The translations under genes and the position numbers were made by a program. The notes beneath the pieces are model-generated. The model saw only the letters and a list, made by a program, of their open reading frames with translations. It was not told the origin of the DNA and did not search any database. From Flavobacteriaceae bacterium (GTDB lineage Bacteria; Bacteroidota; Bacteroidia; Flavobacteriales; Flavobacteriaceae), in NCBI GenBank assembly GCA_965224465.1, contig OZ245049.1, positions 540,001 to 572,000 of the forward strand: a stretch of 32,000 bases of DNA, in the 5' to 3' direction. This document shows, one piece after another, positions 1 to 29,500 of this stretch. Numbering within the stretch: position 1 is the first letter of the stretch; every line of letters begins with the position of its first letter.

Positions 1-966
1 TTAAAAGAGGTTGGTTTAGGTGATCTAAATAATGATTGGTTTACTAAAAATGAAAAACAAAAACCAGCGGAATTAATAGATACCCTTATTAAAAGAGCAA
101 ACAAAAAATATGACGAAACAAAAAAAGAACAACCGGTTTCAAAAGACAAGGAAACTGAATTCAAAGCCAAGACTAAAGAAATTGTTTTGCAGGCTATAAA
201 CACCTATACTGAAGTTAATAATGGCAATGATATTGAAGAAAATTTCAAATCCTATTATATTAATGGAGTTTATCAATTGATGGATAAATCGGGTTTTGCT
301 GACAATCAAGATATTTCTCATCTTAATTCAGATACTATTGTTGCTCAAAGTGTTGCTTCAAATATACATTTTAAACTTACAAGTACTTTTTCTTATTTTA
401 TTTCAAAAGATTACTTAATTGAAAGAGAGAATATTTTTGAGGCAATTGACAGGTTAAGTGTCAACCTTAAAGAATATTGTATAATATCATTTGGTGTTTA
501 CCTTCCGTTTTTAGTAGACAATTTAAAAGTTCCTAATCTAACCAAACAAGGTGAATTCTATTATTTTCATGATACTAAAATAATTACTCTAAACACTTAT
601 GTAAATGAAGTAGTAAGAGATTCTATTATAGTAATAAAGAAAGACTGTTTGCCTAAATTAGTATTTAAAACAATAGACACAGAAGAATTCACTAAATATA
701 ACTTAGACGAATTGGATGAGCAAACTCATCTTTCTGCATCAATTGTTGATTTAAATATTAATCAAGATTTAAGGGATGAAATATCACGTAAATCGAATGA
801 AGATTTAACAAAAAATGTATTAGCATGTATTTCCCTTTGTATTGAAACTCGCTGGAAATCATCTACTACTTGTTATCAATTTAAACCTTTTGACCAATTT
901 AGAAATAAGGGAATTCCACAAAAATTGGAAGATATTGAAACGATAAATAAAACAACCAGCCCATAA
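1..966 (+). CDS. hypothetical protein, 5'-partial (frame 1 is open from the window edge; the M at 187 is probably internal)
   Basis: Frame 1 has no stop from nt 1 to TAA at 964-966. No motif recognised. The stop codon overlaps the inverse core of the following attC. Confidence 0.55.
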   Translation, partial: LKEVGLGDLNNDWFTKNEKQKPAELIDTLIKRANKKYDETKKEQPVSKDKETEFKAKTKEIVLQAINTYTEVNNGNDIEENFKSYYINGVYQLMDKSGFADNQDISHLNSDTIVAQSVASNIHFKLTSTFSYFISKDYLIERENIFEAIDRLSVNLKEYCIISFGVYLPFLVDNLKVPNLTKQGEFYYFHDTKIITLNTYVNEVVRDSIIVIKKDCLPKLVFKTIDTEEFTKYNLDELDEQTHLSASIVDLNINQDLRDEISRKSNEDLTKNVLACISLCIETRWKSSTTCYQFKPFDQFRNKGIPQKLEDIETINKTTSP

Positions 967-1037
967 CACGTGCTCATACATCATAGCTTTGCCGCAGGCG
1001 CAACACAAAGATACGCTGCATAGCACCACCGTTACCT
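961..1037 (+). repeat. attC-type recombination site, short form, intron-free (attC-0)
   Basis: CCATAAC (RYYYAAC-like inverse core, 961-967) ... GTTACCT (GTTRRRY-like core, 1031-1037). Imperfect inverted arms GTGCT..AT..AGC / GCT..AT..AGCAC. Bases after G1031 (TTACCTGC) are complementary to the end of the next cassette at 6022-6028. Confidence 0.6.
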
Positions 1038-1195
1038 GCAAGCGAAAAAACAGCCAGCCGCACAAAAAAAGAGTGCCAAAAAAGGCACACATTGTTTTTT
1101 ACCCACCACATTTAACCATTACAATTAAACGACTTTTCTCATTAGAATTTAATGATTTATTATTAAGTTTACAGCATAATTAAATCTGTTCGAAA

Positions 1196-1393
1196 ATGAA
1201 CCGAATAAAAGAAATTCTGAAAGACAAAGGAATCAGTCAAACTTGGCTTGCTAAGGAAATGGAGAAGAGTTATCCTGCTATAAATGATTACGCAAGAAAC
1301 AAACGACAACCAAGCATTGAAGACCTTTACAAGATTGCCGAAATATTGAACGTAGACATTTCGGAACTATTAATATCAAACAAGAAAAAATGA
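1196..1393 (+). CDS. XRE/Cro-C1 family HTH regulator, R-M controller (C-protein)-like
   Basis: 65 aa. Typical HTH_3 pattern (GISQTWLAKEMEKSYPAINDYARNKRQPSIEDLYKIAEILNVDISELL). Stop overlaps the ATG of the downstream methyltransferase (ATGA). Confidence 0.8.
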   Translation: MNRIKEILKDKGISQTWLAKEMEKSYPAINDYARNKRQPSIEDLYKIAEILNVDISELLISNKKK

Positions 1394-3468
1394 AACTAAC
1401 CGATATATTAAGAGACAGTAACTATAAACTAACTCAATTTACAACTGAGCAAATTTCGACATTAGAAAATAGTATCTTTCTAAAAGAAGTTAGAGGAAAA
1501 GAAGTTCCATTTATTAACTGTTTGGTACGCAGAAAAGATATTCAACTAAAACCTGAAGAAGCCATTAGACAATTATATTTAATGGTTTTGAATGAAGAAT
1601 ACGGATATCCATTTGAAAGAATGGAAATTGAGTATGCCGTAAGTTTTGGACGTGAAAAGAAACGTGCTGATATTGTGATTTTCGACAAAAAAGATACCCG
1701 TTCTATCTACATAATGGTAGAACTTAAAAAACCGAAACTAAAAGATGGTAAAGAACAACTAAAATCTTATTGCAATGCAACTGGTGCACCAATTGGCGTT
1801 TGGAGTAATGGAGATTCAATTTCTTTTTATCATAGAAAAGACCCAAACTATTTTGAAGATTTATCTGCAATTCCATCTGCAAGTGAAAAATTATCTGATA
1901 TTTTAACCGAACGTTGGACAATTGACGATTTAGTAAAAAAAGATAAATTAGTTACCGAAAAAAAATCATTAAAAGATTTGATTTTGGAAATGGAAGATGA
2001 AGTTTTAGCAAACGCAGGTGTAGATGTTTTTGAAGAATTGTTTAAACTTATTTTCACCAAACTGTATGATGAAATGGAAAGCGGTAGAAATAAAACCCGC
2101 CATTTACGTTTCAGAAATTATGGAGATACCGAAACCGAGCTAAAAGAAAAAATACAAGACGTTTTTGATAACGCAAAAAGCAAATGGGAAGGCGTGTTTA
2201 CAGAAGATAGTAAACTAATGCTAACACCTTCTCACCTATCTGTTTGTGTTTCCTCATTACAAGATGTTAAATTATTCAATTCCAACTTAGATGTAGTAGA
2301 TGAAGCTTTTGAATATTTAATTGGTAAAAGTAGTAAAGGAGAGAAAGGACAATATTTTACACCAAGATATGTAATTGATATGTGTGTAAAAATGATGAAT
2401 CCACAAAAGGAAGAAACCGTAATTGATACCGCAGCAGGAAGTTGTGGTTTCCCTGTACATTCAATCTTTCACGTTTGGGAACAAATCCTAAAAGAAAAAG
2501 GAATACCTAAAAGCCATTTGTTTACAGCAGAAGAAAAACCTACAGAATGTACAGATTATGTGCAAAACAACGTTTTTGCCATTGATTTTGATGAAAAAGC
2601 CGTTCGTGTAGCAAGAACATTAAACCTAATTGCAGGTGACGGACAAACAAATGTATTGCATTTGAACACCTTAGATTATGAACGTTGGGACGAAAAAACA
2701 AAAGATGAAGATTGGCAAGAAACTTATTTTGAGGGTTGGAAAAAACTTAAAAAATTAAGGACAAACAAAAACAGCAATCGAGATTTTCAGTTTGATGTAC
2801 TAATGGCAAATCCACCGTTTGCAGGCGATATTAAAGAAAGTAGAATATTAGCTAAATACGAATTAGGTAAAAAACCAAACGGAAAATACCAAACCAAAGT
2901 TGGGAGAGATATTTTATTTATTGAGCGTAATTTAGATTTCTTAAAACCAGGAGGAAGAATGGCAGTTGTTTTGCCACAAGGTAGATTTAACAATAGTTCT
3001 GATAAAAATATACGTGATTATATTGCCGAAAAGTGTAGAATTTTAGGCGTAGTAGGTTTACACGGTAATGTGTTTAAACCACATACAGGTACAAAAACCT
3101 CTGTGCTTTTTGTGCAAAAGTGGGATGCTAAATTATGCCCTAAAAAAGAAGATTACCCAATATTTTTTGCGACCCAACAAGAACCAAGTAAGGACAATAG
3201 CGGAGATAAGATTTTTGTAAAGAAAAAAGATTTTCCAAATACAAATTCAACAGAAAACAATAAAGTAGAAGAGGCACAAAACCATTACGAAACATCTACA
3301 ACAGATTTAGACGAATATTTATTAGATTCTCACGGACATTTAATTGTAAAACACGACCTTTTTAATCACGATAATAGAACAAAAGACGGTATAGCAGAAG
3401 CATTTATAGAGTTTGCTAAAAAAGAAAAACTGTCTTTTGTGCAAGAAAGTCTTGTGCTGGGAAAGTAA
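1390..3468 (+). CDS. N6-adenine DNA methyltransferase (HsdM-like, gamma class) with N-terminal PD-(D/E)xK / HsdR_N-like domain
   Basis: 692 aa. N-terminal nuclease-like signature RADIVIFD...YIMVELKKP. AdoMet motif I VIDTAAGSCGF. Catalytic motif IV NPPF (LMANPPFAG). Translationally coupled to the upstream HTH gene. Confidence 0.85.
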   Translation: MKLTDILRDSNYKLTQFTTEQISTLENSIFLKEVRGKEVPFINCLVRRKDIQLKPEEAIRQLYLMVLNEEYGYPFERMEIEYAVSFGREKKRADIVIFDKKDTRSIYIMVELKKPKLKDGKEQLKSYCNATGAPIGVWSNGDSISFYHRKDPNYFEDLSAIPSASEKLSDILTERWTIDDLVKKDKLVTEKKSLKDLILEMEDEVLANAGVDVFEELFKLIFTKLYDEMESGRNKTRHLRFRNYGDTETELKEKIQDVFDNAKSKWEGVFTEDSKLMLTPSHLSVCVSSLQDVKLFNSNLDVVDEAFEYLIGKSSKGEKGQYFTPRYVIDMCVKMMNPQKEETVIDTAAGSCGFPVHSIFHVWEQILKEKGIPKSHLFTAEEKPTECTDYVQNNVFAIDFDEKAVRVARTLNLIAGDGQTNVLHLNTLDYERWDEKTKDEDWQETYFEGWKKLKKLRTNKNSNRDFQFDVLMANPPFAGDIKESRILAKYELGKKPNGKYQTKVGRDILFIERNLDFLKPGGRMAVVLPQGRFNNSSDKNIRDYIAEKCRILGVVGLHGNVFKPHTGTKTSVLFVQKWDAKLCPKKEDYPIFFATQQEPSKDNSGDKIFVKKKDFPNTNSTENNKVEEAQNHYETSTTDLDEYLLDSHGHLIVKHDLFNHDNRTKDGIAEAFIEFAKKEKLSFVQESLVLGK

Positions 3469-3500
3469 ATAGCCCTTTTAATGAAACTCGATATAAGGAG

Positions 3501-4922
3501 TTGTTGAAAGGGCTAGAAATAGTTGAAATAAATTATTCGGATTTAAAAGAAGAATATAGTAAATTAAGACTTGATGCTGAATTTTACAAAAAAGAGTATG
3601 TTCAATTTACCAAAACAATAAAAAAGAAAGATTTTTTAAAAATTGGACAAGTTTCATTTGTTACAGACGGAATTCACGAATCTATTGATTTTGATAAAAC
3701 AAGCGAGATTAACTTAATTTCTGCAAAATCACCTAAAGAGAATTATTTTGATTTAACATCAAATCATCATATTTCATCAAAGCAAAATCAAAAAAATCCA
3801 AGAACAGAATTACAAGAAAATGATGTAATTATTTCTACTGTTGGTACTATTGGAAATTGTGCTGTTGTGAGAAAAAATATTTTACCGGCAAATTCGGATA
3901 GACACGTTGGGATAGTTAGAATAAAGGAAAAGATAAAACCATATTTTTTATCTACTTTTTTATTGTCAAAATATGGAAGATTTCAAACATTAAGAGAATC
4001 TACAGGTAATGTTCAATTAAATTTATTTATTTACAAAATAAAGGAATTAATAATACCTAATTTATCAAATAAATTTCAATCAAAAATAGATTTTCTTTGT
4101 TCTTTAGCTTATGATAATCGAATACAATCAAAAAATAATTACACCCAAGCCGAAAACTTACTTTTAGACGAAATTGGTTTACAAAATTTTGAACCAAGCA
4201 AAGAACCTGTAAATATTAAATCTTTTAAAGATAGTTTTGGTACAAGTGGTAGATTGGATGCGGAGTATTATCAAAAGAAATATGAACAAGTAGTCAACAA
4301 AGTTAAAAATAAGCCTTTTGACATACTTTCTAATCTTGTAGATATTAAAAAATCTATAGAACCTGGTTCTAAAAACTATGTAGAAAAAGGTTTGCCTTTT
4401 ATGCGAGTTGCCGATTTATCAAAAAATGGTTTATCTGAACCTCAAAAATATATTTCTGATTATTTTGTAAAAGAAAATCAAGATAAAATCAATAATTTAA
4501 AACCTAAAAAAGGAACAATATTATTCTCAAAAGACGGAAGTGTAGGTATTGCATATCATTTAAGAGAAAATTATAAAGGCATAACATCAGGTGCGATTTT
4601 GCATTTAAATGTAAAAGATGAAAACAGAATAGTACCAGAATATTTAACACTTGCTTTAAACTCAAAAGTTGTACAAATGCAAGCAGAAAGAGATGCAGGA
4701 GGTTCAATTATATTACATTGGCGTTCAAGTGAAATAGAAAATGTTGTTGTTCCAATTATTGATTATAAAAAACAACAACAAATAGCAGATTTAATTGAAC
4801 AAAGTTTCACCCTAAAAAAACAAAGCGAACATTTATTAGAAGTTGCCAAACGAGCAGTAGAAATAGCCATAGAAGAAAATGAAGCAATAGCATTCAAGTA
4901 TATTAACCAAGAAACTAAATAA
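3501..4922 (+). CDS. hsdS: restriction-modification specificity subunit (HsdS-like, two target-recognition domains)
   Basis: 473 aa. Internal two-fold architecture with repeated conserved helices (LRLDAEFYKKEY near the N-terminus, GRLDAEYYQKKYE mid-protein). TTG start as given by the ORF track, so the start is uncertain. Confidence 0.85.
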   Translation: MLKGLEIVEINYSDLKEEYSKLRLDAEFYKKEYVQFTKTIKKKDFLKIGQVSFVTDGIHESIDFDKTSEINLISAKSPKENYFDLTSNHHISSKQNQKNPRTELQENDVIISTVGTIGNCAVVRKNILPANSDRHVGIVRIKEKIKPYFLSTFLLSKYGRFQTLRESTGNVQLNLFIYKIKELIIPNLSNKFQSKIDFLCSLAYDNRIQSKNNYTQAENLLLDEIGLQNFEPSKEPVNIKSFKDSFGTSGRLDAEYYQKKYEQVVNKVKNKPFDILSNLVDIKKSIEPGSKNYVEKGLPFMRVADLSKNGLSEPQKYISDYFVKENQDKINNLKPKKGTILFSKDGSVGIAYHLRENYKGITSGAILHLNVKDENRIVPEYLTLALNSKVVQMQAERDAGGSIILHWRSSEIENVVVPIIDYKKQQQIADLIEQSFTLKKQSEHLLEVAKRAVEIAIEENEAIAFKYINQETK

Positions 4923-4924
4923 TT

Positions 4925-5926
4925 ATGCAAGAAAACAATTCACAAATAATTATTTATCAGAATGAAAACGGAGAAACAAAATTAGATGTTCGTTTTCAAG
5001 ATGAAACCGTTTGGTTAACACAAAAATTAATGGCAGAGTTGTTTCAAACTACACCTCAAAACATAACCATACATCTAAAAAATATCTTTGAAGAAGGAGA
5101 GTTAGAAGAGAAAGCAACTTGTAAGGATTTCTTACAAGTTCAAATAGAAGGTAAAAGAGAAGTAAAACGAGAGCGTCAATTTTACAATTTAGACGCTATT
5201 ATTTCGGTAGGTTATCGTATAAAATCTAACGTAGCTACTAAGTTTAGACAATGGGCTACAAGCCAACTTAGAGAATACATAGTAAAAGGTTTTGTATTGG
5301 ATGATGAGCGTTTAAAAAACCCTGATTTACCTTTCGATTACTTTGAAGAATTAACCCAACGAATACAAGATATTCGTACTTCTGAAAAGCGTTTTTACAG
5401 AAAAATAACAGACATTTATGCAACAAGTGTAGATTATGACCCAACTTTAGACATTAGTATTGGTTTCTTTAAAACTGTCCAAAACAAATTGCATTGGGCT
5501 ATTACAGGAAACACAGCGTCTGAAATTATTACAGAAAGAGCAGATAGCACTAAAGAAAATATGGGCTTAACCAATTGGAGAGGTGTAAATATTAGAAAAT
5601 CAGATGTTTCTGTTGCGAAAAACTACTTAAAAGAAGATGAAATTTCAGCCTTAAATAATTTAGTGGAGCAATATTTAATTTTTGCACAAGGGCAAGCAAT
5701 GCGTAGAATCCCTATGCATATGAATAGTTGGATAGATAAGTTAAACAGTTTTTTAACATTAAATGACAGAGAAATTTTAACAAACGCAGGTAGTGTATCT
5801 CACGAAATTGGAAAAGAAAATTCAGAACGAGAATATAAGATTTTCAAAGAAAATAAGCAGAATATAATAGACGAAGGAGACTTTGAAAAGGCTATAAAAA
5901 AAATAGATAATAAGTCTCGAAAATAG
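4925..5926 (+). CDS. rhuM: RhuM family protein (frequently embedded in type I R-M loci)
   Basis: 333 aa. Starts 3 nt after the hsdS stop. N-terminal region (QFYNLDAIISVGYRIKSNVATKFRQWAT, LDDERLKNP) matches my recollection of RhuM-family proteins. Confidence 0.7.
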   Translation: MQENNSQIIIYQNENGETKLDVRFQDETVWLTQKLMAELFQTTPQNITIHLKNIFEEGELEEKATCKDFLQVQIEGKREVKRERQFYNLDAIISVGYRIKSNVATKFRQWATSQLREYIVKGFVLDDERLKNPDLPFDYFEELTQRIQDIRTSEKRFYRKITDIYATSVDYDPTLDISIGFFKTVQNKLHWAITGNTASEIITERADSTKENMGLTNWRGVNIRKSDVSVAKNYLKEDEISALNNLVEQYLIFAQGQAMRRIPMHMNSWIDKLNSFLTLNDREILTNAGSVSHEIGKENSEREYKIFKENKQNIIDEGDFEKAIKKIDNKSRK

Positions 5927-7070
5927 CCAACGCAAGTTCAAGCACATTTAAAGTTTGCTCGTGCCTCACAAATTTAAAAGAGCTTTCACGCCAACGCTAT
6001 CAACAGAACGGGAAAAAGCCAGCAGGTAATCGAGTAGACGGGTGACAACTGAATAGTTGCCACTGCGCCTCTCACACCACCGTACGTACGGGTCTCGTAT
6101 ACGGCGGTTCAAAAAATTGAAGTCTGCGTATTATTAATGTAATCTATCAAAGGTTTATACCCTTTTCGTACAAGTCTAGATTTGGTAATGGTAGTCTTTA
6201 AAATTGGACTTTGGGCTACTGCCCATCCTCCCATTCTGGTTCTACTCCAAGCGTATGCTTGTCCATTCTCTATTCCTAATCTGATTAGGTTTTTACGTTT
6301 TCGTTCGAGTTTTTTCCAATCGTGCCAAATACAATATCGCAACCGATTTCTTATCCACTCATCTAGCTTTTTAACTTTTGCATAGATGTTGGTTAAACGG
6401 TAATTATTCATCCAGCCTCGGCAGACTTGATTAAGCCGTTCTAAACGTTCCGACAATGACATTGGTTTGGTTTTCTTGGTAATACTCTTTAGGTTACGCT
6501 TAAACTTTGCCCAACTTTTCTTTGCTACTACTAGTATATATTGTCCTTTTACTCCCTTTTTGTAGACTGGCACAAAGCCATGTCCTAGTAACTCAAAGTT
6601 TACGGGTCTACGAATGCCACTTTTGGCTTTATTTATAGGTAGTTTTAATTTGTCTTTTAAGAAGACAAACAACGTATTCCCTATTTGTTTCGCCTCACGT
6701 TTGGTCTTTGCGTAAATGCTAAAATCATCTGCGTAGCGGACGTACCGTAAACCCATTCTTTTCATTTCTTTATCCAAGACGTCTAACATTATGTTAGATA
6801 GTAAGGGACTAATTGGGCTTCCTTGCGGGATTCCTTTTCTACGCTTTTGAAGTTTCCCATTTATTAAAATAGGAACTCTAAGCCATTTTCGGATTAAACG
6901 CATGGTTGTTGGACATTTTACCCTGTGGTAAATAAGTTGTAGTAGGATACAATGGTCCACTTCATCAAAGAACCCTTTAAGGTCAATATCTACAATATCT
7001 TGGTAACCATTATTGATATACTGTTGAGCTTGTAGTACTGCTTTTTGAATGTTCTTTTGTGGTCTAAACC

Positions 7071-7119
7071 GACCAACGGGAGCTCATGAACTCCCTAAAA
7101 TAAAAAGCTGTGAATAACC
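7071..7119 (-). repeat. 49-nt mini-insertion (TTATTCAC...GTTCATGAGCTCC family) inside intron copy A
   Basis: Absent from copies C and D at the same position (tctaaacc|caaaac). Identical to the insertion in copy B. Contains hairpin GGGAG-N8-CUCCC. Boundary ambiguous by up to 4 nt because AACC is repeated at both junctions. Confidence 0.85.
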
Positions 7120-7348
7120 CAAAACTAAGTGGCTCAAAATCAAATTCGAACTGAACCATTAATTGTTGGCTTACCGCTTGCTGTAGCCATCTATCTACTA
7201 CTGTTGGGATTCCTAAAAGTCTGGTTTTACCCTTGCCTTTTGGAATGCTTACTCCTAAGATTGAGTTTGGAACATAGCTATTCTTACGGATCGTTGTTAG
7301 TATGTCTGAACGGTTTTCAACTATATAAGTTGAAAGTTCCGTTACTTT

Positions 7349-7436
7349 TATGTGACGGTTTTATTTATTTAAATCGGTCACATAGAGCATCCGAAGATAA
7401 ATAGTCTTTCTTAGGAATATTTCTTCTCGGATGGTT
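7349..7436. repeat. 88-nt insertion made of two hairpins, unique to intron copy A
   Basis: Copies B, C and D read gttacttt|cataccatc without it. Hairpin 1 is TATGTGAC...GTCACATA. Hairpin 2 is CATCCGAAG...CTTC(TC)GGATG. Confidence 0.8.
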
Positions 7437-8021
7437 CATACCATCAACTCCGCTAGCTCCTTTATTTCGCTTCACTTGACGTGCTGCTTTAAAAAGGTTG
7501 GTAGCTTCTAGTACTTTGTCAATCATAGGTTAAATAATTCGGGTACTCCTGTTGGTTTAAAACTAGGCTAGCTAGGCATCCTAATTGAATTTCAACGTAA
7601 TTTAATGTTCTGTCCTTCCCTATTTGTGAGACCATCTGAGGTCTTTCCTCAACTCGTTTCCCATAGGTACTATGACGTCTGCTGACTTCTCCATAGAACC
7701 AACTCCTGGCTTTGGAGACCTCCCCAGGTAATGACATCTTCTTTCACTCAATCACTGCCGTATCTACATAACTACCCTTTTAGTATTCTTTTGGGCGTTG
7801 CAATGATGTGTTTACTTACCCAAGTAATTATACCTCTGTATACGGTTTCTGTTCGTCAGTACCGAGCTTTGTAGTCTCGCTTCCTTCAGATAAAACCTCA
7901 CGGTTTTCACCCTTGCGACTTACTAATGTTTCAGAACGTTACTCCTGCACATAAGGGACTTGCACCCTCTAGATTAATTAACTACCTTTCCGTAGTTAAA
8001 AGATGCCCATGCTGGGCACAC

Positions 8022-8212
8022 ACAAAGTATATAAAACATAGCTTTTAAGTGCTAAACCCAAAGGTTTGTGATTATTTACAAAGTTCCGCCAAATTTTTAA
8101 TTTGGCTTTTAAAATAGAAAAGATAAAAACAAAATATAAAAATTTGGCTCTGTACTAAACCCGAAATTTATCGTATTTTTATACGCTACGTTTCATATAC
8201 AAACCGTTGGCA
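8022..8212 (+). repeat. attC-1, distal part (its inverse core GCAGGTA is at 6022-6028, split off by intron A)
   Basis: Member of a family that is about 85% similar (8022-8212, 12019-12206, 15486-15676, 19340-19527). Arms GTATATAAAACATAGC / GCTACGTTTCATATAC. Ends in core GTTGGCA (8206-8212). Confidence 0.7.
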
Positions 8213-8227
8213 ACAAGCTAAAAAAAC

Positions 8228-9118: not shown

Positions 9119-9252
9119 AACTTCAAAGTTACAACAATATGACAAATTTGAATTTGAAATATTTTCATTTATAAATTAGAATCATTCAGTTTCAAAACTA
9201 TTCCTAAATTATCAATACCTATAAATTTGTATCAAATTAAAATCTAAAAATT

Positions 9253-9645: not shown

Positions 9646-9656
9646 ATTGATAATTT

Positions 9657-17474: not shown

Positions 17475-17483
17475 CTATGGCTA

Positions 17484-19527: not shown

Positions 19528-19541
19528 ATAATGTAAAAAAC

Positions 19542-20567: not shown

Positions 20568-20569
20568 TT

Positions 20570-22363: not shown

Positions 22364-22955
22364 GTAATTTTGGAACAGTCATTTTGGGTTTGACTAAATC
22401 TGTTTTTTTTATTAAAGCGCTTGTTTTAGGGTGATTTCGTGTTTCTTTCTCATAGTTTTTAAAATAATATCTCTTTCGTTTATTTAGGTTCAGGTCTTCG
22501 AATACCACTCGAATACAACAAGCGAAACATCACCTTGCGCTTATAATTAATACAGCTTTCAAACAAAAATTGTAACTCCTCCCTACTAATAATTAAGGGT
22601 AAACTCGGTTTTTCTTTGGGATAGGGAATCTTCCGTGCTAAGGATATATTTTCTAGTATTACCTAAAAGTAGTATCGCAATCCTGCAACATACAACTTGA
22701 TGGTACGCCAATTTAATCCTTTGTCATCTCTCAAAAAAACTAAAAAATCGATTACCTGATCTTGCTACAACTCCTTGGGGGCTTTATCGTGAAATTCATA
22801 CAATTTAACGAGCCCACGTACATAGTTACGAATAGTCTGGTCGGATTTATTAGCAACAATCATTCGGTTTTGATAAATACGAACCAAGTTTACTAATCTT
22901 TTTTTACTACCTTTACTTCTGTTGTACTAAGCCTTTTTCCTTCTGTGTTTTTCAT
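22364..22955 (-). pseudogene. tyrosine recombinase/integrase N-terminal part, decayed and truncated by IS30
   Basis: My translation of the - strand reads MKNTEGKRLSTTEVKVVKK(frameshift in A-run)RLVNLVRIYQNRMIVANKSDQTIRNYVRGLVKLYEFHDKAPKEL*QDQVIDFLVFLRDDKGLNWRTIKLYVAGLRYYF*..KIPYPKEKPSLPLIISREELQFLFESC..KVMFRLLYSSGIR. It has SAM-like N-domain architecture and the LLYxxGxR box. At least 1 frameshift and 2 in-frame stops. Confidence 0.65.
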
Positions 22956-23010
22956 GTTATTCTGATTTTAAATGAATAACACAGAAGTTAAGGGGTCCCA
23001 GGATACACCT

Positions 23011-23153
23011 TAGGAGTTTAGAGCAACACACGTTTATAGTTAATTGCCGATTCTGTTGTAAAATTAAGGCTTGTAGACAGCTTTAACCTTATTGCAATTA
23101 AAAAGGTAAGAAGCCCGAAATCGGCAACATAATCATAGCGCCATCCGTTGGCA
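23011..23153 (+). repeat. attC-like site, intron-free (attC-x); an attI alternative is not excluded
   Basis: GAGCAAC (23011-23017) ... GTTGGCA (23147-23153). Perfect 9-bp inverted repeat TTGCCGATT / AATCGGCAA plus further imperfect pairing. The right arm CATAGCGCCATCCGTT resembles attC-0 (CATAGCACCACCGTT). Confidence 0.55.
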
Positions 23154-23178
23154 TTCATTAGGAAAAACTAAGAAAACA

Positions 23179-24597
23179 ATGAAAAATATAATACTAATAG
23201 TTTTGATTTTAATAGTTAATCTTTCGTTCGGACAAACAGAAAAAGCAGATAACAAAATTATAACCGAAAAATTTGTAGAAAATTATAATAATGATAATTA
23301 CAATGGAATATTTTCAATGTTTGCAGATGTAATGAAAAAAGCATTACCAATAGAAAAAACCACAGAATTTTTAAACGGTCTTAAATCTAAAGCAGGAAAT
23401 ATTACTAATCGAGAATTTGTAAAATATGAAAATGGAACTTATGCTTCTTATAAGACTACATTTGAACGTGTCGTTTTCGTTCTTAACATTTCAATAGATG
23501 ATGATTCAAAAATAAACGGATTATTTGTTAAACCTTTTGTTGAAGAAGTTAATTCGAAAAATGTAATTAATAATTTAACTATTAAAAACGGTTTAGTAAC
23601 AAAAGAACAATCTGAAATCATATTTGAAAACGCAAAAATATTTCCAAATCACACACAAATTTCGATTGCAATAATTAAAGATGGAAAAGTTATTTATTTT
23701 GGAATATATAAGGAAAGTGATACTATTTCAACCATTGATAACAAAAAAAATATTTTTGAGATAGGTTCTATATCTAAAGTTTTCACATCTACCCTACTTG
23801 CAAATTTTGTTATGGACGGAAAAGTTAAACTAAATGAAAATGTTAATGAATATTTAAAAACACCTTTAAATAACAGAACAAAAATCTCATTTACTGATTT
23901 GGCTAATCATACATCTGGACTTCCTCGATTACCAACAAATCTTGATTTAACAAAAGTCAATCCTGAAAACCCTTATATAGAATACAAGGAAAAAGAAATG
24001 AAAGAATATTTAACCAAGTATCTTGAATTATCTAATAAAGGAGAATATCAATATTCCAATTTAGGAGCAGGATTACTCGGTTATACACTAAGTAAAATTG
24101 AGAATGTTACTTATGAAAGCCTACTACAGAATAAAATATTTTCGAAATATGCTATGCAAAATTCAACAGCAGATATTAATAAAATAAAAGGGAATTTAGT
24201 AAGAGGACTAAATAACGAAGGAAAAGAAATTCCAAATTGGGAGTTTTCCGTTTTGGCTGGTGCAGGTGCAATATTTTCAACAGTAGAAGATCTATCGCAA
24301 TTTGCTATTTCTCAATTTGACTACTCAAATAAGGAACTTAAACTTACAAGAGTGAAAACTTTTGAATTAAATAAACATATAGATATTGGCTTAGGTTGGC
24401 ACATTTTAAAATCTCAATCTAAAAATTTTTGGTATTGGCATAATGGTGGGACTGGAGGATATTCATCTTCAATAGTAATTGAAGAAAAGTTTAAAAATGG
24501 AATAATTGTTCTATCAAATGTATCTGCATTCAATCCTAATATGGGCAATATTGATAAACTATGTTTTGAATTAATGAAAACATTAGAAAAAGAATAA
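23179..24597 (+). CDS. secreted serine hydrolase, beta-lactamase/PBP (class C-like) family with an N-terminal extra domain
   Basis: 472 aa. Signal peptide. SxxK (FEIGSISKVF) and YxN (YQYSNLG) motifs. Confidence 0.8.
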   Translation: MKNIILIVLILIVNLSFGQTEKADNKIITEKFVENYNNDNYNGIFSMFADVMKKALPIEKTTEFLNGLKSKAGNITNREFVKYENGTYASYKTTFERVVFVLNISIDDDSKINGLFVKPFVEEVNSKNVINNLTIKNGLVTKEQSEIIFENAKIFPNHTQISIAIIKDGKVIYFGIYKESDTISTIDNKKNIFEIGSISKVFTSTLLANFVMDGKVKLNENVNEYLKTPLNNRTKISFTDLANHTSGLPRLPTNLDLTKVNPENPYIEYKEKEMKEYLTKYLELSNKGEYQYSNLGAGLLGYTLSKIENVTYESLLQNKIFSKYAMQNSTADINKIKGNLVRGLNNEGKEIPNWEFSVLAGAGAIFSTVEDLSQFAISQFDYSNKELKLTRVKTFELNKHIDIGLGWHILKSQSKNFWYWHNGGTGGYSSSIVIEEKFKNGIIVLSNVSAFNPNMGNIDKLCFELMKTLEKE

Positions 24598-24830
24598 CGA
24601 AATGCCAATCGAGTAGACGACTCCAACTAATTAGCTGAAAGGCGCCTCTCACACCACCGTACATACGAGAACTTCGCTTGGTCATTTCTAATTATAAGTA
24701 TAAAAACACTTCTAATTCTCATGAACCTATACGGCGGTTCAAAAAATTGAAGTTTGCGTATTATTAATGGTTTCTATCCTTTTCGTACAAGTCTACATTT
24801 GTGTTTGGTAGTCTTTAAAATTAGACATTA

Positions 24831-24929
24831 TTATTCACTCCCTTTTATTTTTTTAGAGGTGTTCATGATAGCTTCGCAGTTATTCACTCCCTTTTATTTT
24901 TTTAGAGGTGTTCATGAGCTCCACTTCAC
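24831..24929 (+). repeat. tandem pair of about 49-nt mini-repeats (TTATTCACTCCCTTTTATTTTTTTAGAGGTGTTCATGA...)
   Basis: Two head-to-tail units (24831-24879, 24880-24929) sit exactly where the RT ORF has been lost. Confidence 0.8.
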
Positions 24930-25035
24930 TACAGTTCACTCAATCACTGCCGCATCTACATAAATACCCTTTTGATATTCTTTGGATCTTACAATGATGT
25001 GTTTGCTTACCCAAGTAATTACGCCTCTGTATACG

Positions 25036-25086
25036 ATATATTCACGAATTTCTATTTTTGGTATGTTCTTGAGTCACTACGCTTAG
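25036..25086 (+). repeat. diverged mini-repeat copy
   Basis: ATATATTCACGAATTTCTATTTTTGGTATGTTCTTGAGTCACTACGCTTAG has the same block order (TATTCAC / T-rich / GG.GTTC.TGAG / CTACGC.AG). Absent from copy D. Confidence 0.6.
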
Positions 25087-25191
25087 TACTGTACATCAGT
25101 ACCGAGATTTGTAGGGGTATTTGCTCATTCCTCAATCACAAATAATCTTCAGATAAAACGGCACGGTTTACACCCTTGCGACTTACTAATG

Positions 25192-25286
25192 CCTATTCAC
25201 AGTTTTTCATTTTATGGAGTTCATGAGAGCTACGCCGTTATTCACTCCCTTTTATTTTTTTAGAGGTGTTCATGAGAGCTACGCAG
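25192..25286 (+). repeat. tandem pair of mini-repeats
   Basis: Units 25192-25237 and 25238-25286, inserted between ttactaatg and ttcagaacg of the intron backbone. Confidence 0.8.
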
Positions 25287-25378
25287 TTCAGAACGCTACT
25301 CCTGCACATAAGGGACTTGCACCCTCTAGATTAATTAACTACCTTTCCGTAGTTAAAAGACGCCCCTGCTGGGCACAC

Positions 25379-25503
25379 ATAAAGTGTATAGTTTATTGCT
25401 ATTTCTTGCTAAACCAAAGGTAAATAATATTTTATAAAGCCAGTGTTTAACTGAACAATTTATATATTTAAACATGCAACAAACCATACACCAAACGTTA
25501 ACT
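25379..25503 (+). repeat. attC-5, distal part (inverse core AATGCCA at 24601-24607)
   Basis: Shorter and diverged. Starts ATAAAGTGTATAG and ends CATACACCAAAC-GTTAACT (core 25497-25503). Confidence 0.6.
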
Positions 25504-25508
25504 ACAAT

Positions 25509-26246
25509 ATGAAAAAAATTCTAATCCTATATTTTATATTCTCATTTATTTTTGCTTGTAAACACGAAAAAGAAGATAATAAAAATTTTAATGACTCAAC
25601 TTTAAATACATCTGAGAAAATCCTTACAGAGAAAGTTTTAAAAAAAAAAACTGTTGAAGAATTAAGAATTCTACGAAATGAAATATTTGCTAAGAAAGGA
25701 TACGTTTTTAAAGACACTGTTTTAAACAAATACTTTTCTAAAAAGAAATGGTATAAACCGAATAAAAAGACTGAGATAATCTTAACAGATACTGAAAGAA
25801 AGAATATTGAATTAATAAAAAGAATCGAAAAAGAATTAAAACCTTTTGAGATACCTGATGGTTATGAGATACTTAATACAATATCATTAGATTTTGATAA
25901 AGACCAAGTTAAAGATATAATTCAATTAGTTAAAAACACTAAAAGTAATTATTTTGAACAATTTATTTTTATTTATTTAACAAAGACAAAAACACTTCAA
26001 AAGATAGATTTAGGCTTAGAGGACGAATTTAATCAGACCCATGCATTTATAAACGTTGAAAATGGAATTTTAAAATTTGACTATACAATACCTGGAACAG
26101 GTTTATTTAATTACATATATTTTTTTACTTATAATTCAAAAATTAATAATTTTCAATTATCATCTTATTCAACATCAAGTCGAATAATGTATGGGCATAT
26201 TAGTAAAGAGTACAATTTAATAAATGGAACTTATAATGTAACTTAA
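25509..26246 (+). CDS. YARHG domain lipoprotein, N-terminal fragment of an IS30-split gene
   Basis: Lipobox (FIFAC). YARHG-type motif (LRILRNEIFAKKGYVFKD...YF....WYKP). The TAA stop at 26244-26246 is supplied by the IS30 end. Confidence 0.75.
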   Translation: MKKILILYFIFSFIFACKHEKEDNKNFNDSTLNTSEKILTEKVLKKKTVEELRILRNEIFAKKGYVFKDTVLNKYFSKKKWYKPNKKTEIILTDTERKNIELIKRIEKELKPFEIPDGYEILNTISLDFDKDQVKDIIQLVKNTKSNYFEQFIFIYLTKTKTLQKIDLGLEDEFNQTHAFINVENGILKFDYTIPGTGLFNYIYFFTYNSKINNFQLSSYSTSSRIMYGHISKEYNLINGTYNVT

Positions 26247-27367
26247 ATTCAACTAATAAACGCAACTTTTCGATTTGATTCTATGATGGTTATATTTTCA
26301 AAACAGAAAAGTAGGAAAACCTACCTTTCTTGTCTTGATGGATATGTATCTTACGGTCTCAAATCTCGAAAAAAGAAGTTGTATGAAACACATCACCCAA
26401 GCACAAAGATACACAATTTGCTGCATGTTAAAACAAGGTTATAAACAGGTTGAGATAGCAGCTGCTATAGGAAAAGACAAGTCTGTTATTAGCAAAGAGA
26501 TTAAGCGTAATTCAGACAAAAGAAATGGAGTTTACAAGCATGAATTAGCCCAAAAAAAGTATGCTAAACGTCATAAAGAAAAGCCTAAAAGAAAACGCTT
26601 TACAGAAGATATTCAACAAGCAATAGAATTGTTATTGCGAGACGATTATAGTCCTGAGCAAGTAGTTGGTATCCTAAAAAAACAAGGTAAAGAAACGGTG
26701 TCTATTGAGCGTATATATCAGCATATTAGGGAAGACAAGAGGAATGATGGTGATTTACATACACACCTTCGCAGACAGGGAAGGAGATATAGAAAACGTG
26801 GCTCATCAAAGGATTCTAGAGGGGTTATAAAGAATCGCATTAGTATAGAACAACGACCTGAAGTTGTTGAACAAAGAAATCGATTTGGAGATTTAGAGGT
26901 CGATTTAATCATAGGTAAAAACCATAATCAAGCCATACTTACCGTAAATGATAGAGCTTCTGGAATGCTTAAAATGAAAAAAGTAAGCTCTAAAGAAGCA
27001 GTTGTTGTCACCAAAGCTATCAATGAAATATTAGAAGACTGGAAGCCTTATCTACATACTATAACAGCTGATAATGGAAAAGAATTTGCAGGCCATGAGC
27101 AGGTTGCAGAAAATTTATGTATTGATTACTTTTTTGCGCATCCATATCACTCTTGGGAAAGAGGATCTAACGAAAATTTAAATGGTTTGATTAGACAATA
27201 TTTTGCCAAAGGAAGTGACTTTACAAACCTAACAGATCAAAGAATCAAAGAGGTAGAAACAAAATTAAATAACAGACCTAGGAAGAGACATAAATACGAA
27301 AACCCTATATTTGTAATGGAACAATTATTATTTAACTAAAAGTTGCGTTTGTGACTTGAATTCAGCT
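26243..27367 (+). mobile_element. IS30 family insertion sequence, copy 2, with a 3-bp target duplication
   Basis: AAC at 26240-26242 and at 27368-27370. Removing the IS plus one AAC fuses the flanking ORFs in frame. Confidence 0.9.
26335..27339 (+). CDS. IS30 family transposase
   Basis: Differs from copy 1 at two residues (VGILKK vs VGVLKK, YENP vs YQNP). Likely true start at 26383 (MKHIT). Confidence 0.88.
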   Translation: MMDMYLTVSNLEKRSCMKHITQAQRYTICCMLKQGYKQVEIAAAIGKDKSVISKEIKRNSDKRNGVYKHELAQKKYAKRHKEKPKRKRFTEDIQQAIELLLRDDYSPEQVVGILKKQGKETVSIERIYQHIREDKRNDGDLHTHLRRQGRRYRKRGSSKDSRGVIKNRISIEQRPEVVEQRNRFGDLEVDLIIGKNHNQAILTVNDRASGMLKMKKVSSKEAVVVTKAINEILEDWKPYLHTITADNGKEFAGHEQVAENLCIDYFFAHPYHSWERGSNENLNGLIRQYFAKGSDFTNLTDQRIKEVETKLNNRPRKRHKYENPIFVMEQLLFN

Positions 27368-27404
27368 AACAAAAGAAGCCTCTACCATAATTAACCCAAA
27401 TAAA

Positions 27405-27947
27405 ATGATTATGACTAAAAACATGGGGAAACAAGAGTCTAAATTAATAACTCCAGATTTAATTAATGGAAAATTAGATGCATATTTGGATAATATTGGT
27501 AATGAGTTTGACGAAGAACGGTATTCCGATTATTATGGAGAGTTTATAGATTGTAGAGAAGCAATAATACAAAAATTAACTTTAGACTTTGAATACGGTA
27601 GGAATAATTATCTTGGACAGTATAAAGTTTTTGAAAGTCAAATGAAAAACTTTATCCAATCTATAAACACAGATGAAATATTAAAATCTAGAGTTAATAA
27701 GTACTCAAGAAAATATACCCTTCATAGAGATTGGGATTTAAATTATATTAAAAAAGACGAATGTGAAGATGAGCTATTTATGATTTTTGACACTAAAAAT
27801 AATACATTTAGTATTCAAATTAACAATTGTGCTCACGTAATAGAAGAGGGTAAAGTTGTTCATGCATCTGAACAATCAATTATATTTGAGTACACAATAG
27901 AAAAAAATTGCACCTATAAATTTAATAGAATAACTGGAGCTGGATAA
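27405..27947 (+). CDS. C-terminal fragment of the IS30-split YARHG lipoprotein gene
   Basis: The frame is open from 27371 and continuous with 25509-26242 once the IS is removed (..NVTKEASTIINPNKMIMTKN..). Confidence 0.7.
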   Translation: MIMTKNMGKQESKLITPDLINGKLDAYLDNIGNEFDEERYSDYYGEFIDCREAIIQKLTLDFEYGRNNYLGQYKVFESQMKNFIQSINTDEILKSRVNKYSRKYTLHRDWDLNYIKKDECEDELFMIFDTKNNTFSIQINNCAHVIEEGKVVHASEQSIIFEYTIEKNCTYKFNRITGAG

Positions 27948-27958
27948 TACTGTAGTTA

Positions 27959-27972
27959 ATCGAGTAGACGGG
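27959..27972 (-). mobile_element. 14-nt stub of the group II intron 3' end
   Basis: ATCGAGTAGACGGG is identical to the first 14 nt of all full copies. It is preceded by inverse core TGTAGTTA (27951-27958) and cut off by IS256. Confidence 0.75.
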
Positions 27973-28031
27973 ACTGTAAACTCAACTCTGTCTGAATAAA
28001 AAAAAGTATTAACTTTATTCAAACAGAAAAC

Positions 28032-29264
28032 ATGACAAAAGACGAGTTAGCCAACATTGAAAAAAAGGCATTGGATCAATTATTATCAGGAAAAAGTTTA
28101 TTCGGAAAAGAAGGTGCCTTTGCTCCTTTAATGAAACAATTTCTTGAGAAAGCATTGGAAGCAGAAATGGAATCACACCTTAGTGAAGAGGAACGTTCTA
28201 AAGGGAATAAACGTAACGGAAAGGGCAAAAAGACTGTTAAAACTAGTATTGGTAGTTTTGAAATAAGTACGCCAGCGGATAGAAATAGTAGTTTCGAGCC
28301 TGTTCTGATAAAAAAGCGTCAAACCATTTTAGCAGATAATTTATCAGATAAGATCATTGGATTATATGGCTTAGGAATGAGCTTACGCGATATTTCTGGT
28401 CATATAAAAGAGATGTATGATACAGATATATCACACACTGTTTTAAGTCAAATTACAGATAAGATCATACCCGATATAAAACAATGGCAAAGTCGTCCAG
28501 TAGAACAGATGTACTGCATTGTTTGGCTTGACGCTATGCATTACAAGGTAAAAGTAGACGGTAAAATACAACACAAAGCACTTTACAATGTTTTAGGAGT
28601 AAATAAAGAAGGGATAAAAGAGGTTTTAGGAATGTATATTTCAGAAAGTGAAGGCGCAAATTTTTGGCTTCAAGTATTGACAGACCTTAATAACAGAGGG
28701 CTTAAGGATATCCTAATTGCCTGTACAGACAACTTAAAAGGGTTTTCAGAAGCTATCTTGAGTGTATTTCCTAAAACACAAATTCAAAAGTGTATTGTTC
28801 ATCAAATTCGTAATTCTTTAAAGTATATAGCTTCCAAAGATCAAAAAGAATTTATTCGAGATTTAAAGCTTGTTTACAAGGCAGTTAATAAAGATATTGC
28901 TGAGTTGGAGTTATTGAAATTAGAAGAAAAATGGGGAGAAAAATACCCTGTAGTTTTAGAAAGCTGGAACCGTAATTGGGAAGAGTTATCTCAGTTTTTT
29001 CAGTATACAGAACCTATCAGAAAAATAATTTACACAACAAATGCAGTAGAAGGTTTTCATAGACAGGTAAGAAAAGTAACTAAAACAAAAGGGGCTTTTA
29101 CCAGTGATATGGCACTATTGAAGCTTGTTTACTTAGCAACAAAAAATATCGAAAAAAAATGGACAAACCCTTTACATAATTGGTGCTTGACAATTCAACA
29201 ATTATATATTAAATTTGAAGATCGAATAACGTTGGATTTACATAAAAACGGAAGCAGTTCGTGA
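28032..29264 (+). CDS. IS256 (Mutator-type) family transposase
   Basis: 410 aa. Typical N-terminus (LDQLLSG.SLFGKEGAFAPLMKQFLEKALEAEMESHL) and DDE core (WLDAMHYKV..., ACTDNLKGF...). Confidence 0.9.
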   Translation: MTKDELANIEKKALDQLLSGKSLFGKEGAFAPLMKQFLEKALEAEMESHLSEEERSKGNKRNGKGKKTVKTSIGSFEISTPADRNSSFEPVLIKKRQTILADNLSDKIIGLYGLGMSLRDISGHIKEMYDTDISHTVLSQITDKIIPDIKQWQSRPVEQMYCIVWLDAMHYKVKVDGKIQHKALYNVLGVNKEGIKEVLGMYISESEGANFWLQVLTDLNNRGLKDILIACTDNLKGFSEAILSVFPKTQIQKCIVHQIRNSLKYIASKDQKEFIRDLKLVYKAVNKDIAELELLKLEEKWGEKYPVVLESWNRNWEELSQFFQYTEPIRKIIYTTNAVEGFHRQVRKVTKTKGAFTSDMALLKLVYLATKNIEKKWTNPLHNWCLTIQQLYIKFEDRITLDLHKNGSSS

Positions 29265-29284
29265 CGCTAGCCGCTGGGGCTCAT

Positions 29285-29342
29285 TTTAAAATAGTTCGAT
29301 TTTTAAAGCAGCCTTATGAAGAGAAAATCGAACTATTTTAAA
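29285..29342 (+). terminator. perfect 19-bp stem hairpin downstream of the IS256 transposase, inside the IS
   Basis: TTTAAAATAGTTCGATTTT (29285-29303) pairs with AAAATCGAACTATTTTAAA (29324-29342), with a 20-nt loop. The function (terminator or transposition control) is inferred. Confidence 0.5.
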
Positions 29343-29500
29343 ACGTAGAAAAAAACAAGCAGACAGAGTTTAAATTACACAACCATGTCTATTTCTGAAT
29401 CTAGATAATTAACTTTTACATCACAAACCTTCCAATCTGTTCCTAAATTTAATAGTAACTCAAACAGTTTTGTTGAAAACATCTTTTTGAGGTAAAGATA

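Follow-up and report, generated by a model that had tools for sequence, protein, structure and literature searches.

Why should gene after gene in a bacterial chromosome begin with the reverse complement of its own end, and what kind of machinery would have put such genes in a row? The question is raised by a stretch of 32,000 nucleotides (nt) from a Flavobacteriaceae bacterium (contig OZ245049.1 of assembly GCA_965224465.1, positions 540,001 to 572,000 of the forward strand; this whole stretch is called the window here), which has a G+C content of 33% and carries seven cassettes and the tail of an eighth, with unrelated cargo. An earlier note on this DNA, written from its letters alone, had taken the region for a cassette array of the integron type, either the distal part of a large chromosomal integron or a cluster of attC sites lacking integron-integrases (CALIN). 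According to our analysis, a chromosomal integron-like cassette array of a marine Flavobacteriia-type bacterium is very probably represented in the window by its distal part, and relatives point to a Xer-like enzyme as its recombinase. Judged from its sequence, the locus is integron-like in its presumed working, and yet it departs from the features by which membership of the integrons is defined.

What carries this reading is the relationship between the two ends of each cassette. All twelve strings that the earlier note had quoted for six start/end pairs were found exactly where it had placed them. Starts were anchored at the GTT that follows the conserved ...ACAAACC repeat tail, and ends at the base preceding a conserved intron end, ATCGAGTAGACG; every cassette start was compared with the reverse complement of every cassette end, counting consecutive matches after 'GT'. 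The six cognate pairs gave 7, 7, 8, 8, 7 and 8 consecutive matches, and the 36 non-cognate combinations 1-2, except for one related pair (TGGCA, seen twice) that gave 5. Cognate complementarity in the window is real and far beyond chance, because only about 4^-6 per pair would be expected for the variable bases; it supports the proposed architecture of integron-style cassettes as well as the circular-permutation logic, by which the TT-N7 start of each cassette pairs with its own N7-AA(C) end. The complementarity even exceeds that earlier reading, in that GTT plus seven bases are followed by A (start) versus G (reverse-complemented end) and then by 2-3 further matches, as in cassette 4 (GTTAGCCATA-A-TTA versus GTTAGCCATA-G-TTA). 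As the off-diagonal values indicate, the complementary partners are both ends of a gene-bearing segment and not both flanks of a single repeat copy, and by these values the insertion of a repeat into a pre-existing palindrome could be ruled out. A second candidate, complementarity produced by intron exons, was also rejected, since the rule is obeyed at intron-free sites too. A partner of the seventh cassette start (19521, GTTGTAAATA) was searched for in the window and is absent from it, which we attribute to the insertion sequence (IS) of the IS30 family (21236-22368) that cuts that cassette.

By coordinate, the window holds the features below, where L001 stands for a near-identical 22-kb metagenome contig that carries the window's beta-lactamase protein, and R'', L'', L' and R' denote the outer (R) and inner (L) arms of the sites:

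958-1033, plus strand: short attC-like site that closes the cassette entering from the left; R'' ...CCCATAAC (AAC 965-967), R' GTT 1031-1033.
1031-6028, plus strand: cassette 1, GTTACCTGC ... GCAGGTA|(AC); type I restriction-modification methylase 1390-3468, specificity subunit 3501-4922, RhuM-family gene 4925-5926.
6029-8021, minus strand: group II intron copy 1, 1993 nt, at TTGT|T of R'', reverse-transcriptase open reading frame (ORF) disrupted; Rfam RF02001 (126 bits) and RF01998.
8022-8208, plus strand: attC-like site 1 body, AC-AAA-L''(GTATATAAAACATAGC)-~150 nt-L'(GCTACGTTTCATATAC)-AAACC-GTT; nhmmer 157 bits, and fold.
8206-10113, plus strand: cassette 2, GTTGGCAAC ... GTTGCCA|; LysR regulator 8228-9145 (minus strand), rhodanese 9253-9645, GNAT acetyltransferase 9657-10097.
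10114-12018, minus strand: group II intron copy 2, 1905 nt, ORF disrupted; repeat comparison and Rfam.
12019-12202, plus strand: attC-like site 2 body; nhmmer 157.8 bits.
12200-13628, plus strand: cassette 3, GTTATGCCTT ... AAGGCATA|; protein binding cyclic nucleotide monophosphates 12233-12811, 246-aa ORF 12889-13629.
13629-15485, minus strand: group II intron copy 3, 1857 nt, ORF truncated to 365 aa; Rfam.
15486-15672, plus strand: attC-like site 3 body, a divergent member of the 189-nt class; nhmmer 64 bits, and fold.
15670-17483, plus strand: cassette 4, GTTAGCCATA ... TATGGCTA|; AraC-type regulator 15712-16539, DUF5694 protein 16608-17474.
17484-19339, minus strand: group II intron copy 4, 1856 nt, with intact reverse transcriptase/maturase 17564-18844 (426 aa); Rfam.
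19340-19523, plus strand: attC-like site 4 body; nhmmer 176.6 bits.
19521-21235, plus strand: cassette 5, starting GTTGTAAATA, 3' end lost; DUF2931 protein 19542-20567, fragment of a Tle1-like phospholipase 20570-21244.
21236-22368, minus strand: IS30-family element copy A, cutting cassette 5; transposase 21267-22271 (Pfam HTH_38/rve), terminal inverted repeats 21244-21268 and 22336-22360.
22369-23149, plus strand: insert remnant, then R' end (..CCATCC-GTT) of the site preceding cassette 6; 99.9% identical to L001 9182-9970.
23147-24607, plus strand: cassette 6, GTTGGCATT ... AATGCCA|; serine beta-lactamase-family protein 23179-24597.
24608-25378, minus strand: degraded group II intron, 771 nt, with internal deletion and 49-nt repeats; Rfam RF02001 (36.9 bits) and repeat families.
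25379-25499, plus strand: attC-like site 6 body, short class of about 120 nt; sequence read and fold.
25497-27958, plus strand: cassette 7, GTTAACTACA ... TGTAGTTA|; YARHG-domain gene split by IS30 copy B.
27959-27974, minus strand: 16-nt stub, the 3' end of a sixth intron (ATCGAGTAGACGGGAC); sequence read.
27975-29379, plus strand: IS256/Mutator-family element truncating the array; transposase 28032-29264 (Pfam Transposase_mut), inverted repeats 27975-27994 and 29360-29379.

The genes are tightly fitted into their cassettes. The first start codon lies 12-42 nt past GTT in cassettes 3-7 (cassette 1 has a leader of 359 nt, and in cassette 2 the 3' end of a gene on the minus strand comes first), and the last stop codon is at most about 10 nt from R'' in five of the six complete cassettes and about 95 nt from it in cassette 1. 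A scan of the window with a sigma-70 promoter model, which is unsuited to Bacteroidota, gave fewer matches than shuffled sequences.

What, then, are the elements of about 2 kb that part each cassette from its site? The earlier note had taken them for introns and had pointed to IS elements as well, and both assignments are borne out by Rfam group II hits and Pfam transposases, respectively. Four copies share 97-100% identity and a fifth is degraded; RF02001, at 126 bits in the four and 36.9 bits in the fifth, together with RF01998 places all of them among the group II introns, on the minus strand, the boundaries of copy 1 being set by comparison of the copies and by its GTGTG...GAT ends. Only copy 4 retains an intact 426-aa reverse transcriptase/maturase (Pfam RVT_1 and GIIM; NCBIfam TIGR04416 at 358 bits), which has no endonuclease domain and whose nearest relatives are from introns of Bacteroidota (60-69% identity), with class C types of Firmicutes at about 40%. 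On the minus strand, each intron is preceded by ...L-box-(N)TTGT and followed by T-N7; the 5' exons end in CTTTGT, CCTTGT, CATTGT and CGTTGT, and the 3' exon opens with the T of T-N7. Group IIC-attC introns are known to target the bottom strand of attC within R'', at the consensus TTGT/T and opposite to the cassette genes (PMC3001079, PMC7923331), and the geometry found here, with insertion into the bottom strand at TTGT|T after a stem-loop, is that of the published target. Class-C-like group II introns have colonised five sites, plus a sixth before an IS destroyed it. Bottom-strand insertion, separation of a gene from its site, the TTGT|T target and the missing endonuclease domain are all shared with S.ma.I2 and its relatives, from which the present introns differ in having their closest kin in Bacteroidota and in occupying a single array with four near-identical copies, one of them coding.

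Three further observations concern these introns. A unit of about 49 nt (TTATTCACTCCCTTTTATTTTTTTAGAGGTGTTCATGA...) forms two tandem pairs in the degraded intron (24796-24918 and 25203-25325), and a similar piece of about 50 nt interrupts the central hairpin of a site in another stretch (L093, ~2040-2100); it may be a tiny insertion element. Positions 22743-22760 of the window (also L001, ~9565) read AAAAAATCGATTACCTGATC on the plus strand and have the 11-mer TCGATTACCTG in common with the junction, on the minus strand, between intron 1 and its 3' exon, with about 0.015 such matches expected by chance; the insert may here preserve a vestige of an old, inverted intron junction. The cassette end AGCCAGCAGGTA|AC recurs in the window (6013-6028), an Aquimarina contig, Zobellia uliginosa and a plasmid of Chondrinema (L013, L023, L123), with an intron directly after it in the window and on the plasmid, where the cassette start (GTTAGCTGC) is one position off the expected partner of the AGCCAGCAGGTA end; an intron may carry its own 3' exon bases along on moving.

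Excising 6029-8021, 10114-12018, 13629-15485, 17484-19339 and 24608-25378 in silico restores X-AAC...GTT-Y' sites of 120-190 nt, with the form X-AAC / 3-nt spacer / L'' GT(A/G)TATAAAACATAGC / about 90-150 nt / L' GCTACGTTTCATA(T/C)AC / AAACC / GTT-Y'. The outer half-sites R'' (..AAC) and R' (GTT..) pair, and each cassette's own start is complementary to R''; AAC and GTT are invariant, and of the integron consensus GTTRRRY only the first base after GTT fits (R in 93%). The imperfect L''/L' arms announced by the earlier note are present (e.g. 12024-12039 and 12179-12194), the L box being 16-18 bp long and separated from the R box by unpaired spacers, mostly of 3 nt on the R'' side and 5-7 nt on the R' side. 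The sites fall into size classes of about 116-125, 157-163 and 185-192 nt; attC sites of integrons measure about 57-141 nt and have a variable centre, whereas the main class here is that of 185-192 nt, with a conserved centre. This centre (window 8086-8125 and its equivalents in L002-L118) contains two hairpins, the near-invariant CCGCCAAATTTTTAATTTGGC, behind which come runs of T/A, and TTCGGCTCTGTGTTAATCCGAA; its conservation points to a terminator, an RNA or a site bound by a protein (perhaps by the N-terminal domain of the recombinase introduced below); at the Rfam gathering threshold the sites themselves matched nothing.

Which form of the site would be recognised, the duplex or a folded strand? 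Across 62 distinct L boxes the sequences change and Watson-Crick pairing is kept, and at positions 7 and 12 a top-strand A·C mismatch, which is a G·T wobble in the bottom strand, occurs in 41 of the 62 each (the opposite type in 1/62); at R-box position 11, A and G are distributed in the same asymmetric way. Fold predictions give the bottom strand the higher stability in 103 of 122 sites (Wilcoxon p = 9e-16), and likewise in all sites of the window. Extrahelical bases are missing from the main classes, where the L arms are of equal length and fully paired, with G·T wobbles at fixed positions; only the short site 958-1033 folds with bulges, as an R-box/spacer/L-box hairpin with single-base bulges (bottom strand -12.0, top strand -5.1 kcal/mol). 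Co-varying outer arms combined with strand-specific wobbles are what one would expect from selection on a bottom-strand hairpin, and recognition of a duplex would not predict them.

How far do such sites and their rule extend beyond the window? The 24-mer GCTACGTTTCATAYACAAACCGTT, used as an exact search string over 8-kb genome stretches, occurs in at least 117 of them, with about 40 named genera of marine Flavobacteriaceae among the matches listed, and further carriers are found among Crocinitomicaceae, Cryomorphaceae and Cytophagales. The whole unit of about 189 nt is conserved in these relatives, the bases outside AAC and GTT vary, and with a profile built from the unit, 4-10 copies are detected in many stretches; the array of Zobellia uliginosa runs for at least 26 kb from its recombinase. 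In 25 of 54 consecutive site pairs detected with the profile, the match between start and end reaches 9 nt or more, where shuffled partners would give 0.85 such pairs. Among the 29 apparent failures are 20 in which both partner 9-mers lie inside the interval, beside hidden divergent sites of 116-159 nt or extra cassettes, and a search by the rule alone recovered 146 sites with rule-obeying cassettes on both flanks. No signature protein family is common to the 117 array stretches, because their cargo is too diverse.

Which enzyme would act on these sites? No integrase gene lies in the window, as the earlier note had maintained and as ORF and domain scans and tblastn for a recombinase gene confirm. 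In a tblastn search of all array stretches (about 0.9 Mb) with a hand-entered IntI1 sequence, only tyrosine recombinases of a short type were retrieved, upstream of and co-oriented with the sites. The array recombinase, or its C-terminal piece at the edge of a stretch, stands in this position in L019, L119-L123, L042, L050, L044 and L012, that is, co-oriented with the array in 10 of 10 cases, in place of the divergent intI arrangement of integrons, whose cassette promoter Pc lies in or near intI. A minority of integrons, the Treponema type, do have intI in the same orientation as their cassettes. The protein has 363-387 aa, including an N-terminal addition of about 105 aa, and the array begins about 45 nt after its gene. 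The full-length example from Maribacter (L019, 375 aa) scores 230 bits with NF040815 (XerA / 'integron integrase'), above the cut-off of 220, and 208.9 bits with TIGR02249 (integron integrase), below the cut-off of 265 and in two stretches that skip profile positions ~180-250. In BLASTP it is 33% identical to IntI1 (again the hand-entered sequence), with a gap of about 45 aa opposite residues ~206-255; its best solved relatives are XerA, IntI4 and XerD, XerC also being close. An AlphaFold2 model (mean predicted local distance difference test score, pLDDT, 78) has an alpha/beta N-terminal domain (1-75), core-binding and catalytic domains and no extra helix, only 16 residues lying between helices 271-284 and 301-314. 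The array-linked recombinase of the relatives is in this respect without the additional domain (the I2 alpha-helix) of the IntI clade.

The surroundings of the gene complete what looks like a platform. In the Maribacter stretch, the first cassette begins about 45 nt after the stop codon (...TATACAATT|GTTGTCATTA), and the rule holds for four cassettes in succession, three of which have sites that differ widely in sequence; ...TATACAATT|GTT-type sites, resembling attI, lie about 45 nt past the stop codon in L019, L122 and L123 of these relatives. In all four platforms examined, a conserved zinc-ribbon protein of 123-129 aa, with an N-terminal CxxC...CxxxC and weak similarity to DUF2116/YacG, is encoded divergently just upstream of the recombinase, and is a candidate accessory or regulatory factor; its gene lies at these positions:

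L119 9520-9900, minus strand: zinc-ribbon gene.
L122 9562-9936, minus strand: zinc-ribbon gene.
L019 5074-5445, plus strand: zinc-ribbon gene.
L123 8264-8653, plus strand: zinc-ribbon gene.

The platform is not only chromosomal, because plasmid unnamed28 of Chondrinema litorale (L123, NZ_CP111070.1, 15.4 kb) carries it in full at record positions 3,300-9,100. Present there are the zinc-ribbon gene, a recombinase with a full-length identity of 45%, an attI-like site and a cassette encoding a GNAT protein, and at R'' stands an intron of the window's family, with a 120-nt site behind it.

Evidence that the cassettes move comes from comparisons of strains and genera. Variation at the boundaries among related strains, whose absence had been named beforehand as speaking against an array, was looked for and found at GTT. 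Three stretches with an identical recombinase (P0058; L119, L120 and L121) are identical through ...CCGTAC-GTT and then continue into three different first cassettes; the break can be placed at or within GTT, three bases that all partners have in common. Maribacter arcticus and a Psychroserpens genome share, at 98% identity, a 1223-nt cassette together with its 119-nt site, the homology beginning at GTT behind different upstream sites, and Winogradskyella immobilis and a metagenome-assembled genome of Bacteroidia (L060/L067) share a full cassette at 87%, including a 188-nt site, the homology ending after the site, near the next GTT. The G|TT junction proposed in the earlier note agrees with both kinds of comparison, the strains diverging right after GTT and cassettes common to different genera starting their homology exactly there. 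One might object that an intergenic repeat of about 190 nt (a repetitive extragenic palindrome, a miniature inverted-repeat transposable element or a bidirectional terminator) was passively spread by transposition or introns, with flank complementarity as a by-product of target choice, given that the unit is highly conserved, very abundant and prone to break assemblies, that it contains terminator-like hairpins and that class C introns home to terminators. Insertion into palindromes, however, would pair the flanks of one copy, whereas the partners here lie 0.3-5 kb apart at the ends of gene segments; the rule also holds at intron-free sites and at sites of unrelated sequence but the same architecture, and whole cassettes cross genera with breakpoints at GTT. 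This explanation is already contradicted by the pairing in the window, by the identical-recombinase strains and by the intergenus cassettes, and we regard it as scarcely credible.

Could the recombinase simply be the housekeeping Xer dimer resolvase, and the 'cassettes' elements that integrate as double-stranded DNA at a dif-like site and pile up in tandem, in the manner of integrative mobile elements exploiting Xer (IMEX) or of pdif modules? Its best matches in sequence and fold are XerA, then XerD and XerC, its identity across genera is high, and in Zobellia its gene stands beside the housekeeping genes era and der. The sites, however, are imperfect palindromes of 120-190 nt and not 28-bp dif sites; arms that co-vary cassette by cassette and a strand-specific G·T asymmetry are not explained by duplex recognition; the recombinase occurs twice in at least one genome (P0001, P0020); a small plasmid bears the whole platform; and the enzyme comes with an extra N-terminal domain and a dedicated partner gene. 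A resolvase origin of the array is very unlikely in the light of these points.

The remaining alternative is the one favoured by the earlier note, an ordinary integron array or CALIN, in which a canonical IntI with I2, encoded elsewhere, recombines the sites and the adjacent Xer-like gene is incidental. Its appeal lies in the shared architecture (AAC/GTT half-sites, spacer, L box and cassette signature), in group II introns at the position typical of attC introns, and in the surveys by the authors of IntegronFinder, which list for Bacteroidetes lone intI genes (In0) and one Salinibacter integron only. Yet every platform examined starts its first cassette about 45 nt after the stop codon of an insertion-less recombinase, with strain variation from that GTT, and the tblastn search with IntI1 found the short type only. 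In the 11.3 kb covered of the 15.4-kb Chondrinema plasmid record, the short recombinase is likewise the only one present. The main site class offers no extrahelical bases to an I2 helix. The canonical assignment was not upheld, since the arrays of the relatives are joined to a Xer/XerA-like recombinase without the IntI-specific insertion and the main sites, 185-192 nt long and conserved in sequence across genera, have no bulged bases; we consider it very unlikely.

How would the system work instead? The cassette unit would be [TT-N7 ... genes ... N7'-AAC - spacer - L'' - variable centre - L' - spacer - G]; such a unit would come out as a circle and go in through site-specific recombination at G|TT. 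What is recombined would be the folded bottom strand of the site, in which an R box (GTT+N7 against N7'+AAC, extended by a G·T wobble and a further 2-3 pairs) is set off by an asymmetric unpaired spacer (about 3 nt versus about 5 nt) from the 16-18-bp L box. Each cassette start would be complementary to its own end, and the cassettes would differ from one another, because the R box of the folded strand must pair. The enzyme would be the Xer/XerA-like tyrosine recombinase of 363-387 aa, with its extra N-terminal domain of about 105 aa and without an IntI-type insertion, encoded immediately upstream of and co-oriented with the first cassette, with an attI-like site about 45 nt past its stop codon and the divergent zinc-ribbon gene. 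We infer, rather than observe directly, that the substrate is single-stranded, which enzyme acts and where exactly it cleaves. In a broader sense, the balance tips slightly in favour of a second, so far unrecognised family of integron-type platforms in marine Bacteroidota (Flavobacteriia and Cytophagia), chromosomal as well as plasmid-borne, in which a Xer-like enzyme without I2 would recombine folded single strands, perhaps helped by its N-terminal domain and the zinc-ribbon partner, with fixed G·T wobbles setting the strand and a cassette pool common to dozens of genera. The field sees in the I2 helix the innovation by which recombination of single strands became possible (PMC7790495). No description of such arrays in Flavobacteriia or Bacteroidota was found in the literature searched, in which subscription journals were thinly covered, and an earlier description is possible.

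Several observations weigh against this picture. The central ~150 nt of the main site class are conserved in sequence across about 40 genera among the matches listed. Some complete genomes have the site at several distant places, and several arrays or solitary sites are therefore possible. The recombinase family is very large and 76-88% identical across genera, as is the case for housekeeping Xer, and the window having no recombinase gene of its own, the link to the enzyme rests on relatives. Finally, two of the four intergenus cassettes lose homology about 20 nt past AAC instead of at the next GTT (L043/L075, 95% identity; L037/L080, 85% identity), and therefore not all exchanges fit the simple G|TT model. 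In both pairs, the homology ends at the intron insertion point, as would be expected if intron-intron homologous recombination had swapped the bodies of the sites.

The later history of the window is one of insertions. IS30 copy A is absent from the corresponding place in L001. Copy B (~26242-27366, transposase 26335-27339, with inverted repeats) splits the YARHG gene of cassette 7, and L001 has no IS at this position, having one instead at window position 25731, with a 3-bp duplication; since the position of the IS differs between the two, IS30 is currently active. Copies A (21236-22368) and B (26242-27366) lie in opposite orientation around a segment of 3.9 kb, in the manner of a composite transposon, and bracket the beta-lactamase-family cassette, the degraded intron and the start of cassette 7. 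The IS256-family element (27975-29379) removed everything past the 16-nt intron stub. Beyond it lie type VI secretion genes on the minus strand, including one for a VgrG-like protein (30272-31966). Cassette 5 (19542-21244) encodes DUF2931 and Tle1-like proteins, the latter of a type VI lipase effector family, and the end of the array adjoins the VgrG-like gene (29501-31966); the pool of cassettes may include type VI effector modules. For the site that precedes cassette 6, an L'' arm was searched for and is not present, a loss that we attribute to IS30 and to an insert. The insert remnant at 22369 continues leftward in L001 into a 426-aa ORF of no known family; that this minus-strand ORF (7465-8745) represents a second type of intron was considered and found no support in Rfam or Pfam. 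A second kind of insert occurs in L001 at 2385-4230 and 6711-7190, directly after a ..AAC half-site, with a leader of about 430 nt starting TAAGTGTTCGTGCGGTGCGTAGC and then a short-type tyrosine recombinase gene without the N-terminal extension, which about 190 nt interrupt in one copy and of which the other copy retains only the last ~15 codons; neither insert has a match in Rfam, and the element may be a mobile one that targets cassette sites.

Where does this leave the locus among known systems? With sedentary chromosomal integrons it has in common arrays of unrelated, tightly packed genes, the AAC...GTT palindrome with unpaired spacer and inner L box, a start complementary to its own end, the G|TT junction, an attI-like site beside the recombinase gene, strain-variable content, cassettes shared between genera, a bottom strand that folds better and group II introns at R''. 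It differs from them in a co-oriented recombinase without the I2 insertion but with an extra N-terminal domain and a zinc-ribbon partner gene, in a main site of 185-192 nt whose centre is conserved across genera, in having fixed G·T wobbles at L-box positions 7 and 12 and R-box position 11 in place of extrahelical bases, in an R box of about 13 bp and not 7, in several cassettes that hold 2-3 genes with their own regulators, and in a host clade that has been reported to be essentially free of integrons. To the Xer systems (XerA/XerCD at dif, IMEX, CTX phage) it is tied by a recombinase core that is closest to XerA/XerD in sequence and fold, whereas a 28-bp dif-type site is lacking here and an attI-like site beside the gene, many short cassettes and an extra N-terminal domain set it apart. 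CTX phage, which integrates as a hairpin, is a known case of a folded single strand being used by a Xer enzyme that has no I2 helix. The pdif modules of Acinetobacter plasmids are bounded by inverted Xer-type sites and move between replicons, using short duplex XerC/XerD sites in alternating orientation; they resemble the present cassettes as gene modules between inverted sites but have neither cassette-specific arm complementarity nor a long hairpin.

What would the existence of such a family mean? Integrons have been deemed nearly confined to Proteobacteria and are defined by an IntI with the I2 insertion. If the reading put forward here is true, a comparable system of gene capture pervades an ecologically dominant marine clade and has been missed by the standard detection tools. 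A natural enzyme seemingly without I2 makes the need for this helix in folded-strand recombination directly testable, and dense, near-identical introns exactly at R'' constitute a natural test of the proposed intron-driven swapping of sites between genes via homologous recombination. With at least one version of the platform borne on a plasmid, there is also a route of mobilisation. The cassettes themselves would form a large untapped pool, of which the window alone contributes restriction-modification genes, regulators, a beta-lactamase-family enzyme and type VI effector-like genes.

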